Origin: Chrysomallon squamiferum
Lineage: Eukaryota; Animalia; Mollusca
Length of the DNA: 64,000 bases
Direction of reading: 5' to 3'
Assembly: GCA_012295275.1 (NCBI GenBank)
Contig: CM022675.1
Location: forward strand, 2,604,001-2,668,000
Part shown: piece after piece, positions 24,909 through 34,857 of the stretch
How positions within the stretch are numbered: the first letter of the stretch is position 1
Layout: the number at the start of each line of letters is the position of its first letter
Notes under the pieces: generated by a model
Told to the model about the DNA's origin: nothing
The model's database searches: none
Seen by the model: only the letters and a program-made list of their open reading frames with translations
Position numbers and translations under genes: made by a program

Positions 24909-25482
24909 ATGTGGATATCGATCGTGTATCTGTTGCTTCTGAGTTGTTCCATCACTCTAGGTAACTTTCCTTTCTCTATGTCTCTGTTGTTAAATAAAGA
25001 TACTTTGAAACAGTAGATAATTCATAGACAGAAGAAAACTATTCATCAAATAGATCTTCAAATAATGACATTAACATTTTACCAACGGCTCATTGAAGTT
25101 GTAGAATAAAATCTAAAAACAAGTGAAACAAATACTGGCTTCCATTTCTGATAAAATTAACTTTCATATTATTATTGCCATTGTTATTATAATAATAATG
25201 ATAACAATAATTATGTGAAAATTATTTTTATTATGATTATTATTATTATTATTTGAAATAAAATTTGAAATAAAACAACATAATATCTGTAATTTCTGTA
25301 TTTCGCATCTGTTTTTGTTTTCATACTGTGCGCAGTGGTTTTCATGTCTACTGGTTATATCTGCGATATTTTCCACTACGTTGTATATTTCTTCCGTTTT
25401 ATTTCTTTCTTCATTTACTTATTATTCTACTAGGATACTAGTACTCATAAACTACTATTGGTATTTAAATTAAATATGTACA

Positions 25483-25531
<49 letters not shown>

Positions 25532-25891
25532 GACACATATACATATACATCTATATATATAGATAGATAGAGAGAGAGAGAGAGAGATAAATAGGTTAAC
25601 AACAATTTTCTGTCATGAAATATATCACATTATAAAATGTTGTACTTGTTTACAGGTAAAGAGTACTTCGACTGCAGACGACAAGGTCAGGATTGTGCTA
25701 ATAATAAAATTTGTCAAAATGACGGCACCTGTGACTGTGGAAATGACTACACTGGCTACAACTGTGAGCTGCAGAAAAGTGAGTTATAACATTTTAATAT
25801 ATCAAATGTATGGTCACTAATAACCTCTTAATAACATTTCAGACAACTGTTCTCGTTGTTTTTTCTTCTTATTCTTGCCGAATTTCTTCTG

Positions 25892-25931
<40 letters not shown>

Positions 25932-26297
25932 ACATGTATATATATTTCATGTTTATTTATATTCAGATTTGAGCGGTTCAAGTCCGTGTACCAATCAGAG
26001 TGACTCTTGTGGCTCTGATGGAGGCATCTGTTACAACAATAATGGAAGCAAGGCGTGTTTCTGTCCACCTGGTTTCCATGGAGACCACTGTGAAAACAAA
26101 AGATGTGAGTAATTCTTTCGACTTAACAAAATAACAGCTTTATATCTACCATTGTTTTTACGTACTGATGAAGGGTAGATGACATTCGTGTTGTTTTCAA
26201 TATTATCATTTAGTAGAATTGTTTAACCAGCCATAAGTAAGTTGATATATATATATATATATATATAATAAATGCGTGTGTCTGTGTAAATATATAT

Positions 26298-26347
<50 letters not shown>

Positions 26348-26385
26348 AGCCATTTATCCAGAAAACCGGCAATTATTTATTATTA

Positions 26386-26420
<35 letters not shown>

Positions 26421-27075
26421 CATCATCATCATCATCATCATCATTTATCCTTGTATATACTAATCTAAATGTTTTCAGATGAAGTTACCTGTGAGAAAAG
26501 TTCTATGTTGATTGTGATTAATCCTGCTGGAACATTCAGTGGTGTCGTCTATGCTAAAGATCAAAAAGACACGACAGGTTGCATGTTCACGATATCAGAG
26601 CTACCCTCGGGAAAACAGGGTGTGGCTCTTAATGTTAAGGACATTGAATGTGGTGGAGTGAGTCAGGTTAGTTCTCTTTATTATTTTTATAATTCTCATT
26701 TTACTCTTCTTTTCTTTATAAACTGTTTTTATTTTTAGTTACCTGCTTAAATTGATTAAATGAAATATGTTTATTTATATGTATGTTTGTGGGATTATGA
26801 TATCAGGGGAAAAGTTTTTAAATATTTGATTGTTGTGTATGATGTACACAGTGACATTACACATTGTTTGAAACAGTACTGAACATAATCTGTGCCATTC
26901 TGTGCCGTACTTTAAGGTAAATGGAGATCGAACTCGAGATGTGATCATTCAGTTCAGTGAAAAGTATATGACAAACCTCGACACAAAAGTCTCTGTCACT
27001 TGTAGTGAAAAAAACAACGATGCCATAACCGTGACTGTCACCAAAGTGATAACAACCAAACAAACTGAAAGGTTG

Positions 27076-27135
<60 letters not shown>

Positions 27136-27575
27136 CGTTTTCTTCCTTGGAATCTGTTTAGCAGTTATATAACTATATATTCATTTGTGGATACTATTAA
27201 ATTAATATTCTGGTACTGATGAAATTAGTGCACTGAACATTCCATTTCGAGTATCAAGATTTTACTAAGGATGTTACACATAAAACAATTTGTATAAGAT
27301 TATTAACAGGGTGGACAGCTTGGATATTAATTGTGTATATCTGGGATAGCTTTTGGTGTTATTTTACAGAGACACACTGAACATCACAAACGCAGACAAC
27401 TCAATAGACTCCTCGCTTGTCCAGTTCAACATCAACCTCAAAGACGGGTCTTCAGTTTCAGGAGCTGTATCTTTACACGAAGAACTTACATTTGAGTTTA
27501 TTACAAGTAGGAACCAGTGTTTCTTCACTGATTTTCGTTTTCATTTCTTAATAATAATACTAATAATACTACTAC

Positions 27576-31336: not shown

Positions 31337-31369
<33 letters not shown>

Positions 31370-31594
31370 CATTTCCTGTTTTGAGAAAAGCATTCATTGT
31401 TTTTCATGCTATAGACATTGGAATAAGTTATGGGATAAAACCTAACTCAGATATGCTGGTTTGCTAGAGCTTATACATATTTCTTGATGTGACAGACAGA
31501 ATCTTCTTCTCTTTTTTTTAAATTTTCATTTTGATTTAAATTTAAATTTTAATTAAAATTTTTAGTTTTATTCATTCATTTATTAATTTGTTTC

Positions 31595-31668
<74 letters not shown>

Positions 31669-32609
31669 GCTGTTGTTGTTTATTTATTATGTTTTATCCA
31701 GTAGAAGACAATTCAGAGATTAAAATTCGTCTGGTGAATGGCAGTTCAGAACGAGAAGGTCGAGTAGAGATTAAATATCTTGGAATGTGGGGCACAGTCT
31801 GTGATAAATATCATACTGATTACAACGCAGCTGTTTACTGCAGAATGCTGGGTTTTACTAAGTAAGTTATTAACAAGGATTATTATATTTACTGCAGAAT
31901 GCTGGGTTTTACTAAGTTATTAACAAGTATTATTATATTTACTGCAGAATGCTGGGTTTCACTTAGTAAGTTATTAACAAGGATTATTGTATTTATTGCA
32001 GAAACTTCGATTTGACTAAGTAAGTAATTTTAATCACACAATATAATGTTTAGTTTTCTTTTTTTTCTAAATTGGGTAAACTCCTTATTAAACAACTTAG
32101 TCCAATATTCCTTAAAAAATATCGATACATGGCCTCTCTTACAGTTCAAATGCAACAGCAGTCGGTTCAGCTTATTTTGGTGAAGGATCAGGACCTATCT
32201 TTCTGCGTGACATTCACTGTTTGGGAAATGAAACCAGTCTTGAACAGTGCAATCTTCAATGGGGTAACAGTGACTGCAAACACAACAACGACGCCGGTGT
32301 GATATGCAGAGGTAATATTCAAAACCTGTTTCTAACTTTACTATTTTCATTCTTACATCCAAGTATTGTTTATAATAGTTCGAGTTGCAAATACAGTCAA
32401 AACAAAACTAGTTTTTTAAATTTCAGTTTCGTATGTCAGTGTTTCTAAGCCAAATACAGCAAAATAAACGTAAATAAAATCGCATATAAAATAATGTAGG
32501 GAAATAAAACAAATCACTCCTGTTAAATTATCGATATATACATCCAGAGTGCTCGAGTTACGTATACACACACACAAACACAAACACATGGAGAGAAAGA
32601 GACAGAGGC

Positions 32610-32708
<99 letters not shown>

Positions 32709-34103
32709 AGAGTGAGAGAGTGTGTGAGCGTGTGTTTGTGTGTGTGTCTTCGACAGTTTACTTTTCAGTGGAGAAACTTTATGTGTGGTTATGATGAAGA
32801 TTCTAGTGTGATATGTGTAAGTAACACTAGATAACTGTTAACTGTCATAATTCCGTGTTTATCACAGTTATTTATAACATTATTATTTGCAAATAAATCT
32901 GTTAGGATTTAAGTCATTTCGTTTTATGACCTTTCCTTAAGATGGGTTCAGCACAAGCCATTATATATATATAAAAATTAAATATTCATTTAAAAGTGTA
33001 AAAAACATTATAATAATTAAAGATATTTCGAAATAATAAAAGAACAAACCAAAGAGAATAGGAATATTGTTCAAAAACACACATAAACACAAAAAAGCAA
33101 ATATACCCAGCAACATCATACACACACTGAAATACACACACGAAGGAAGATTTGTATATAAAAAAGTTACTAAATATTAGGTTTTTTTTCATTCAGTGTA
33201 TATTAACATATGTAACATATAATAATATTCTTTGAATATCAGGAATTAAAATAATAAAGATGTGATAATATTAACTCATTCAGCTTTGTTACTATGTTAT
33301 TTAACTACACAGATGCGACACTATTATCTTTCCAAAGTTTTGAATAAAGCTTGTATAAACTAATGTTAATTATAGAATCAGAGCCAGAATCTGGTGCAGT
33401 CACAGTGGAACCAGGTACTCTCAGAGTGGAGTCATGCACTGCTGATAATGAGAAAACTGGAGAAGACAGTGAAACTTTGAAAATCATCGAAGACAGGTAA
33501 TATTTTATTTTTCAGTCTAATTATACACAAATCATTGATTAGCAACCACCACGGATCTTTGTTTCTTTGGATAAAAAATGACTATTCTAGGATTTGAATT
33601 GTTCTTCAAAATATAATAATTATTTGTCGACAAACGGTGACTATGAGTCTACAATAGACTAACAATTAGCTTATCTAAGAAGATTAAACACTCAGACTTC
33701 TACTTCGAGAAAACAATGTCTTCATTCCTAGGACGGACCCAATAGTACGGAAGTAATATCATTTAACAATATAATCAGTCCTATCTGTTATCAGTCACGC
33801 AATCATCGTTAGTTTAACCAGCACGAAACAATCAAACAGAAATGAAGTTTAGTTGTGACTGGTTGATATTTGTGTTTCTTTTTTCAGCTGTCCTTCGTCT
33901 GAGATTGGTAAACTGATGACACAGGAACCTGAAAGATCAGGAAACAACGTCACATTCAAGTTGAAAGCTTTCACCTTCAACAAAAACAACAAAGTCTCTA
34001 TAGAATGTTCTGTCAAAGTTTGTCCTCCAGATCAAAAATCTCTCTGTGACCCAGTAAGTTATATAATTTCTGATTATAGTTTTGCATCGGTTACACTAAA
34101 TGT

Positions 34104-34152
<49 letters not shown>

Positions 34153-34582
34153 CCAATACATAAATAAATAAATAAACATGTAAATACATTTATAATTCAA
34201 TAATTTTCTTGTTGTTGATTTTTTGTTTGTCTAATCTTGTTACTACTACCTGTATGTGTTTCAGGAAATAAAGAAAGAAAAAAATAACGCTGAGAAATGT
34301 CTGTAAAATGACAAATCTAATGATCTGACTATATTCATGTGTTAAAATGTTTATATTTATAATTTTAGGTGGACTGCAATGGCAGGCCAGGGTTTGGAAG
34401 AAAACGGAGATCAACTGAAACATCTGATGAAATTGTCAGACAGACATATACTGTTGTGGAGGTGATGAATGAAAATAAAAAACCAAGTGAGTTTTGTTTT
34501 GATCGTTCAATTTATTTATTTCATTAATTTGTTTTCTTACCTTAAACTCATATTTCTGATTATGTAGATAAAAGTAATAATG

Positions 34583-34615
<33 letters not shown>

Positions 34616-34857
34616 TAAATAAACACATACTTTTTCAATGTATATAAATTGCTAGAAGTTATAGAAACATCTGACATTTAAAATCTCCTTACATTCTAGG
34701 TGACTCACAGACATCAGGTGACAAGCAAGGATCTGATGAAGTCGATGTCAGCACCACGATTCTGATTATTCTCTGTGTTGTCATGGTGATCATCTTCTCA
34801 CTTGTCATTTGGATTGTGGTGGTCGTCTTCCTAAGGAAGAAAAAATCGAATCAGTAA
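24909..34857 (+). CDS. G2: complete EGF-EGF-ZP(SRCR x4 insertion)-furin-TM protein, about 893 aa
   Basis: 19 coding exons, all GT-AG and in phase, 2682 nt total: 24909-24960 ([17 protein letters not shown]), 25656-25778, 25967-26104, 26479-26666, 26917-27071, 27370-27506, 27740-27784, 28089-28230, 28812-28984, 29366-29525, 30058-30209, 30532-30688, 31097-31269, 31705-31861, 32145-32311, 33376-33496, 33888-34053, 34369-34486, 34700-34857. An acceptor at 24896 implies an upstream non-coding exon. Confidence 0.92.
25656..27071 (+). CDS. G2 EGF1, EGF2 and ZP-N exons
   Basis: [13 protein letters not shown]..; [55 protein letters not shown]; ..VSVTC. Confidence 0.9.
27370..27784 (+). CDS. G2 ZP linker and first ZP-C strands plus 45-nt micro-exon
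   Basis: ..[32 protein letters not shown] / [15 protein letters not shown]; resembles the IHP and 'V.xGd.Ltl.i' start of invertebrate ZP-C. Confidence 0.75.
28089..32311 (+). CDS. G2 SRCR1-4 cassette
   Basis: Eight exons (phases 1-2-1 per domain) with lengths 142/173/160/152/157/173/157/167, matching paralogs. Confidence 0.92.
33376..34857 (+). CDS. G2 remainder of ZP-C, RKRR furin site, TM and tail
   Basis: [51 protein letters not shown] followed by RKKKSNQ*. Confidence 0.9.

Follow-up and report, generated by a model that had tools for sequence, protein, structure and literature searches.

Evidence that four SRCR domains are inserted within ZP-C in a tandem family of EGF-ZP membrane proteins from the scaly-foot snail

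A 64,000-nucleotide stretch of the Chrysomallon squamiferum genome (assembly GCA_012295275.1, contig CM022675.1, positions 2,604,001 to 2,668,000 of the forward strand; hereafter, the window) carries four paralogous genes, G1 through G4, for membrane proteins that combine EGF-like, SRCR, and ZP domains. The protein encoded by G2, the only copy that is both complete and intact within the window, is ordered as signal peptide, two EGF-like domains, ZP-N, ZP-C strands A and B, four SRCR domains, ZP-C strands C through G, an RKRR cleavage site, and a transmembrane segment. We conclude that the SRCR array very probably lies inside ZP-C, in the loop between strands B and C (the BC loop), rather than in the linker that joins ZP-N to ZP-C. 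Judged by sequence, the window genes appear to be a derived variant of the molluscan EGFZP family.

G2 encodes an EGF-ZP protein that carries four SRCR domains

The G2 gene and its parts are as follows (positions are those of the window).

24909-34857, plus strand: G2 gene; 19 exons, introns all GT-AG, 2685 nt, 894 aa, no internal stop
24909..24960, plus strand: exon 1; signal peptide, predicted from a hydrophobic stretch
25656..25778, plus strand: exon 2; EGF-like domain 1, with an FDCRR motif common to abalone and chiton EGF-ZP proteins
25967..26104, plus strand: exon 3; EGF-like domain 2
26479-26666 and 26917-27071, plus strand: exons 4-5; ZP-N (Cys 109/139/162/196) and the start of the linker
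27370..27506, plus strand: exon 6; end of the linker, ZP-C strand A (internal hydrophobic patch), and strand B
27740..27784, plus strand: exon 7; 45-nt phase 1-1 micro-exon, variable stalk in the BC loop
28089..28984, plus strand: SRCR1 (exons 8-9); 6 Cys, divergent between paralogs
29366..30209, plus strand: SRCR2 (exons 10-11); 6 Cys, second half without a Pfam match
30532..31269, plus strand: SRCR3 (exons 12-13); 4 Cys
31702..32311, plus strand: SRCR4 (exons 14-15); 6 Cys, the most canonical and most conserved SRCR
33376-33496 and 33888-34053, plus strand: exons 16-17; ZP-C from strand C onward (Cys 728/749/788/793/801), FxF motif
34369..34486, plus strand: exon 18; Cys 806, RKRR furin-type site at 814, external hydrophobic patch strand
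34700..34857, plus strand: exon 19; transmembrane helix, short basic tail, stop

Each SRCR domain is encoded by two exons with phases 1-2-1, the end of exon 7 and the start of exon 16 are both in phase 1, and removal of exons 8-15 (1284 nt, 428 codons) leaves an open frame of 466 aa. These features agree with a first-pass annotation of this DNA, which had described a four-SRCR insert with phase-1 junctions on both sides whose eight exons can be removed without closing the frame. The full set of ZP cysteines (four in ZP-N and six in ZP-C) is retained together with the furin-type site, and the cytoplasmic tail is shorter than 10 residues.

Pfam models were run exon by exon over 17 of the G2 exons, the two outside the scan being 17 and 15 codons long. 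As had been anticipated for domain scanners, separate pieces of the protein were matched: EGF-type models below cut-off on exons 2 and 3, the ZP-N-type model CUT_N on exon 4 (E 2.2e-5; for G1 exon 4, E 1.4e-6, above cut-off), SRCR on seven of the eight SRCR exons (exon 11 gave no SRCR match), and positions 76-132 of the 133 in the ZP-C model on exon 17 (E 7.3e-7). Exons 6, 16, and 18, scanned singly, had no Pfam match, and no CUB domain was found in the 17 exons. The ESM Atlas likewise identified exon 17 as ZP-C (0.94) and returned no usable match for exon 6, and a PDB sequence search with exon 17 alone found none.

The SRCR array interrupts ZP-C after strand B

A scaffold profile made from five uninterrupted mollusc EGF-ZP proteins (abalone and chiton) aligned with G2 in two parts, residues 5-271 with positions 7-277 (E 3.7e-46) and residues 722-892 with positions 280-459 (E 1.3e-32). 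Because these parts map to adjacent profile positions (277/280), the scaffold appears to be complete, with the SRCR domains replacing a loop of few residues. Exon 6 aligns to the portion of the chiton protein that Pfam counts as ZP-C (residues 250-380, positions 7-132). On a profile limited to strands A and B, it scored 8.4 bits, which was reached by 3 of 1000 shuffles, and the best of 257 non-overlapping windows scored 3.2. Moreover, a profile of the family spans the insertion site (hereafter, the slot) in chicken ZP3 (3NK3, E 1.1e-4), with strand B before it and the strand bearing Cys5 after it, and also aligns across the slot to 28YJ (E 5.7e-9). Cys5 sits on ZP-C strand C (PMC7456536). All six ZP-C cysteines of G2 are C-terminal of the insert, and therefore the A/B half of ZP-C would be held without a disulfide.

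The structural prediction was made with AlphaFold2 for a Gigantopelta relative, XP_041347291 (P0126), which has one PAN-like domain in the slot; the alignment had 32 rows, and the prediction was aided by solved ZP structures. Model confidence (pLDDT) was 85-89 at residues 241-280, 40-66 in the insert, 76-93 at 351-440, and 91 at 461-470, the strand after the furin site. The top Foldseek matches of the model were ZP modules. VIA-align placed residues 243-446 on uromodulin 455-584 (Z 10.0, 3.4 A, 121 aligned), and at least 31 of the aligned residues must precede strand C because just 90 residues of 243-446 follow the insert. The start of this superposition coincides with the internal hydrophobic patch of uromodulin (F456, M460, L462; PMC7737619). 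Residues 244-474 also superposed on betaglycan ZP-C (Z 11.1, 3.3 A, 142 aligned) and the model on endoglin (Z 12.1, 2.6 A, 123 aligned). The two ZP-C halves are therefore predicted by the model to rejoin as one sandwich. Since the N and C termini of an SRCR domain lie close to each other (PMC7043408), it is plausible that those of G2 are looped out from it. When folded alone, the P0126 insert had a pLDDT of 56 and no Foldseek match, and two copies of the P0126 ZP module predicted together scored 0.01.

Some of the data weigh against this placement. Exon 6 of G4 scored only 2.7 bits on the A/B-only profile. Unrelated immunoglobulin folds (nanobodies) reach Z 8-9.3 in the same list, which makes the margin of the superpositions modest, and the fold prediction was obtained with a 75-residue insert, as opposed to the loop of about 430 residues in G2. 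If exons 6 and 7 were nothing but linker, the SRCR domains would stand between ZP-N and a ZP-C lacking strands A and B, a reading for which the silence of Pfam and the Atlas on exon 6 alone can be cited. However, the colinear profile match, the shuffle test, the ZP3 alignment, and the AlphaFold2 superposition already largely refute it, and we regard it as highly improbable. The same four results uphold the earlier proposal that the insert follows the second ZP-C strand. That proposal had counted exon 6 and the micro-exon together as the start of ZP-C; the former does supply strands A and B, but exon 7 is a variable stalk that adds no ZP-C strand.

RNA contigs join the SRCR array to the second half of ZP-C

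Among contigs from RNA run X2, one joins exons 4-5-6, and joints connect exons 12-13-14. A 442-nt contig from the same run (record 11) joins exon 15 (SRCR4) to exons 16 and 17. Its aligned parts are separated by 72 letters, where G4 predicts 72, G2 predicts 96, and G1/G3 predict 69; it differs from G2 at 10/8/13 positions (G4 predicts 10/8/14), and both of its loose ends are of the G4 type. Because spacing, differences, and loose ends all fit G4, splicing links the SRCR array with the second half of ZP-C in this copy at least. No contig among those listed contains the exon 7-8 or the exon 7-16 junction; X2 has no cover at 27512-28528 and run X4 contributed no contig, so this absence is evidence neither way. 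For the upstream junction, support is indirect and comes from the RefSeq models of relatives and the gene models published for the scaly-foot snail.

In run X1, 934 contigs fell within 24800-34950, among which 397 were just 90-95% alike and clustered on conserved exons. This is a weak hint of many more paralogs, with depth giving no copy number.

The same slot holds other modules in relatives

A HMMER search with G2 exon 17 against 1.84 billion representatives (cut-off E 0.001) gave 11 matches. The best six were RefSeq proteins of the vent snail Gigantopelta aegis, which are computed gene models, each named 'uncharacterized'; the other five comprised three unnamed exon-sized pieces, one repeat-rich chance match, and one abalone EGF-ZP protein. 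A further search added one chiton and two abalone proteins. The Gigantopelta proteins are the closest relatives, and G2 exons are 40-62% identical to XP_041347291. Composition had at first brought an octopus or squid origin into view, which was dropped once all six best matches proved to be from Gigantopelta.

Four of these Gigantopelta proteins (XP_041347291, XP_041377501, XP_041372195, and XP_041371611) have ZP-C split at the same site as G2 but with different slot contents. Between strand B and Cys5, XP_041347291 has 92 residues with one PAN-like domain, XP_041377501 has 168 residues with two PAN domains (Pfam PAN_1 34.6 bits, cut-off 21.4), and XP_041371611 has 47 residues, its slot holding about 30 residues without domain assignment. 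In XP_041372195, a partial model that lacks the upstream half, an SRCR domain directly precedes strand C and is 31-33% identical to SRCR4. The PAN label of the P0126 insert comes from a profile built on the two P0124 repeats, against which the insert scores 23.7 bits (a value reached by 0 of 500 shuffles, the best of which scored 7.0), and from a match to PAN_3 with E 0.043. Like SRCR domains, PAN domains bring their termini together. A furin-type site (RKRR or RKKR) is present in all nine homologs compared, and both peltospirids also possess a separate, uninterrupted EGF-ZP protein. The slot is thus most likely exchangeable within the family, with PAN-like, two PAN, and SRCR contents at one site; these other modules in relatives had been overlooked in the first-pass annotation.

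In a tree of 15 rows and about 120 residues, with Lottia and Pinctada EGFZP not among the rows, 13 EGF-ZP rows were split from two bivalve SRCR-CUB-ZP rows (100/100), the inner order being unresolved. Eight insert-bearing rows fell on one side with support of 63/89, so that their grouping is neither shown nor rejected. Because a single clade of SRCR-bearing rows was not rejected (p-AU 0.153), one SRCR insertion cannot be told from several. A word-index search with exon 17 found no relative, and one with SRCR4 found generic SRCR proteins only among the 120 listed of 295, two of them with a ZP, intact in both. A metagenome scan gave 595 pattern matches, none confirmed.

The G. aegis shell-proteome protein ctg1032-2.0-1 has a partial SRCR at 2-65, and P0123, in which an SRCR is followed by ZP-C strand C, has one at 1-65 (PMC11871041). 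The two are possibly the same gene.

Comparison with known ZP proteins

Like G2, molluscan EGFZP shell-matrix proteins (Shimizu et al. 2022, PMC9290575; Haliotis XP_067686008 and XP_046562128; Liolophura P0137) comprise a signal peptide, two EGF domains, ZP-N, ZP-C, a furin-type site, and a transmembrane segment, and they are colinear with it over the full length except for the insert. Their BC loop is short, with 14-17 residues between strand B and Cys5 in all five abalone and chiton proteins, whereas this distance is 457 residues in G4 and 465 in G2, which has about 450 more residues and four SRCR domains there. Vertebrate DMBT1/hensin and the bivalve SRCR-CUB-ZP proteins (P0086 and P0109) also combine SRCR and ZP in one chain, but they have CUB domains and their SRCR domains are N-terminal of an intact ZP-C, not inside it. 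The lophotrochozoan protein LZP1 shares signal peptide, SRCR, ZP, and transmembrane segment with G2; it is described with SRCR followed by ZP, lacks the EGF domains of G2, and is not reported, in the available part of PMC9290575, to have the interruption that places the G2 SRCR domains inside ZP-C.

Known ZP insertions include the ZP3 subdomain, the AB-loop expansion of fish, long FG loops, and an insertion in the ZP-N DE loop of CUTL-9 (PMC7456536). They resemble the G2 case in that ZP folds tolerate loop insertions, but none in the available part of that source is an array of foreign folded domains, lies in the BC loop, or is exchangeable. In the literature examined, including the available parts of PMC10855680 and PMC13361971, we found no description of a ZP-C split by another domain; the brachiopod EGF-SRCR-ZP orders (PMC9290575) stand outside this comparison. 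ZP-C has hitherto been seen as a compact unit that receives accessory domains on its upstream side. Its division by as many as 430 residues, with varied modules at one site, would point to a permissive loop that could be used for grafting domains onto ZP scaffolds.

A putative matrix scaffold that displays SRCR domains

The mechanism that we favor, with somewhat better than even confidence, is that these proteins are furin-released EGF-ZP-SRCR matrix scaffolds that display variable binding modules. A four-SRCR cassette would have entered the ZP-C BC loop by phase-1 exon shuffling. The product would be a type I membrane precursor cut at RKRR, and the ectodomain released by furin would enter a secreted organic layer; this is likely to be the coat of the shell and the cuticle of the scales, a tissue assignment borrowed from the scaly-foot array described below. 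There, the ZP scaffold may anchor through contacts with partner proteins, as in pearl-oyster EGFZP, whose ZP binds shell proteins (PMC9290575), and the looped-out SRCR domains may bind matrix or microbial ligands. Because a nematode ZP protein enters its matrix via ZP-C alone (PMC7665627), such incorporation need not take the uromodulin path. Among the settings that had been suggested earlier, a sucker or an egg coat is not favored, and a shell- or scale-secreting epithelium is preferred instead.

The paralogs are 50-61% identical in SRCR1-3, 81% identical in SRCR4, and 93% identical in exon 17 and in exon 14; SRCR1-3 diverge faster than the scaffold. From SRCR1 to SRCR4, the G2 domains have 6, 6, 4, and 6 cysteines, which is not the group B pattern; the SRCR domains of SALSA (DMBT1) have four disulfides (PMC7043408). 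Display of ligand-selected modules is, however, opposed by several of our data. The ratio of nonsynonymous to synonymous substitution rates (dN/dS) is below 1 in all four SRCR domains (0.45-0.74; exon 17, 0.25), and dS is itself raised in SRCR1-3 (0.39-0.59 versus 0.15 for the scaffold), so that the data do not demonstrate positive selection. The contrast in divergence may reflect conversion among scaffold exons, with no need for selection by ligands. The paired Asp of the DMBT1 cation site, which follows the WG motif, is complete only in G4 SRCR3 and SRCR4 by a provisional mapping of D1019/D1020, and DMBT1-like ligand binding is consequently not to be assumed for SRCR1-2. In addition, two of the four copies (G1 and G3) are frameshifted.

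It is possible, although we doubt it, that the proteins, once released, form ZP filaments of the uromodulin type from which the SRCR cluster branches off sideways all along. The furin-type site, the external hydrophobic patch strand, the FxF motif, and all ZP cysteines are retained as such filaments would need, and the filaments of uromodulin and of egg coats bear protruding branches (PMC7737619; bioRxiv 2023.06.21.544075). In uromodulin, however, Y402, Y427, F456, and F499 form the ZP-C/ZP-N filament interface (PMC7737619). In the window family, the ZP-N signature Tyr aligns to Arg and the Tyr after ZP-N Cys4 is absent (both in low-confidence columns), the aromatic position before strand C is occupied by Pro or Ser in G2/G4 and by Ser in G1/G3, and the slot adjoins what we map as the F499 position. 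Because three interface aromatics appear to be replaced, a classical filament is less likely than first assumed; the Tyr-to-Arg change predates the insert, since uninterrupted abalone proteins share it. The apparent loss of these aromatics, the presence of endoglin and betaglycan ZP-C among the best structural matches, the fast divergence of SRCR1-3, and the transmembrane anchor in four copies would all suit a non-polymerizing ZP pedestal, as in betaglycan and endoglin, on cell-surface pattern-recognition receptors for microbes or symbionts. This we consider unlikely, given the conserved furin-type site and the cytoplasmic tail of fewer than 10 residues. If the scaly-foot array is the window family, moreover, expression is highest in scale epithelium or mantle for 47 of the 51 array rows covered, rather than in gill or in the gland that houses the symbionts.

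The phase 1-1 boundaries that would permit clean skipping also raise the question of whether the SRCR exons serve as an optional cassette or form a nested gene, the working product being an ordinary uninterrupted EGF-ZP protein. We judge this very unlikely because SRCR4 is joined to exon 16 in an RNA contig, an insert connects the two halves in two RefSeq models, and the SRCR exons themselves supply neither a start nor a signal peptide nor a stop. Furthermore, exon 16 adds almost no loop in G1/G3, and a separate uninterrupted EGF-ZP exists in both peltospirids.

Relation to the scaly-foot snail 'DMBT1' array

The scaly-foot snail has a tandem array of up to 65 'DMBT1' copies that is associated with scale epithelium and mantle (PMC7142155; PMC7736800) and has been described as DMBT1 with 0-5 SRCR domains (Sun et al. 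2020, PMC7142155; Zeng et al. 2020, PMC7736800). The window family resembles it in its tandem SRCR genes, domain offsets and spacing, ZP match after the fourth SRCR, and unannotated upstream pieces. Because domain spacing and fragment layout match, the window family is very likely this array, misnamed and fragmented in the published models.

The Pfam table of the array (PMC7142155; 50 genes counted) holds no CUB, no EGF, and one ZP match, which is 77 residues long and starts 7 residues after the fourth SRCR; in G1/G3, the corresponding distance is 8 from the last Cys. In five array models, the first SRCR begins at residue 174-175, compared with 174 in G1 and 172 in G2 when counted from a Met in ZP-N. 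Among seven multi-SRCR models picked by eye, five have SRCR starts spaced by 103-104 and then 108-110 residues (104 and then 109-111 in the window), one fits SRCR1-3 roughly, and one does not fit. Among 120 generic SRCR proteins, 1 of 257 spacing pairs showed this pattern. SRCR2 is half-matched in array models as well, and one member is annotated 'EGF-like domain-containing 1'.

Coordinates and expression were taken from one part of the source data (51 rows; PMC7142155), in which the median model span is 1431 bp and expression peaks in scale or mantle in 47 rows. Eleven of 19 unannotated array models lie no more than 4 kb upstream of an SRCR model on the same strand, and 7 of those 11 have a length of 903-1264 bp and a distance of 224-590 bp; in the window, exons 4-7 cover 1277-1386 bp and intron 7 is 258-319 bp. 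The weak Pfam labels of published SRCR-less array models (AIPR, DUF1735) were not reproduced on single exons. The 'DMBT1' gene tree (PMC7142155) has two clades, each with one Haliotis copy; one clade may hold ZP halves and the other SRCR halves of what is really a single gene.

This identification is tempered by the fact that it is built on table numbers, with no sequence match. A name search over part of the C. squamiferum shell and sclerite proteome sheets found no DMBT1-labeled protein, and an uninterrupted EGF-ZP protein did occur in those sheets (PMC11871041). The G. aegis shell proteome included one weak SRCR protein (PMC11871041).

Neither the EGF-ZP scaffold nor the split ZP-C is mentioned in the available parts of the 'DMBT1' publications. 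The view that the architecture was undescribed is consistent with this, although the genes themselves have probably been listed already as DMBT1. If the link is true, the headline expansion of the scaly-foot snail would be one of remodeled shell-matrix EGF-ZP proteins rather than immune DMBT1, and the genes would be fewer and longer than counted. It would also offer a concrete candidate, open to testing, for the way in which an old shell protein was co-opted for a new hard part. More tentatively, the BC loop of peltospirid EGFZP might be an exchangeable exon-cassette slot (one PAN, two PAN, or one to four SRCR domains) whose SRCR version was amplified in the scaly-foot snail. The resulting 'DMBT1' array would then be a repertoire of ZP polymers or scaffolds presenting variable binding domains and patterning the scale cuticle or the microbial coat on it, a natural system for domain display on a ZP backbone.

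Other copies in the window

Three further paralogs and one decayed fragment accompany G2.

1..11210, plus strand: G1; 19 exons in the same order, exon 6 (2574-2715) with a 1-base frameshift, truncated by the window start
14430..15302, plus strand: decayed fragment of the 5' part of a further (fifth) copy; EGF1 exon 2 with a stop, broken ZP-N exon 4
44423..52335, minus strand: G3; from the end of exon 6 through exon 19, exon 9 (50589-50412) with a 1-base frameshift
52813..61650, plus strand: G4; exons 6-19 in one open frame, fits the RNA contig joining SRCR4 to the second ZP-C half

Exon and domain order is common to all four paralogs, each of which keeps the RKRR site and the transmembrane anchor, and micro-exon 7 measures 45, 45, 51, and 48 nt in G1 through G4 (15-17 codons). 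The earlier statement that ZP-C is interrupted in all four is borne out by this shared order, with the qualification that only G2 can be read complete and intact.

G3 and G4 stand head to head across a 200-N gap (52336-52535), and exons 1-5 of both are absent from the window. Because the 5' halves of both genes are missing at the gap, a collapsed inverted duplication is suggested there.

Several partial exon duplicates were also observed. In all four paralogs, the 3' end of exon 14 is repeated with its donor one to three times in tandem in the next intron (31828-32030, 7117-7219, 47508-47660, and 57518-57801), yielding spare donor-like copies, and a reversed piece lies at 12435-12691. Intron 6 of G1 holds, at 2853-2888, a second copy of the final 12 codons of exon 6 (strand B) together with the donor, and a decayed partial duplicate of exon 18 lies in its intron 18 at 10801-10857.

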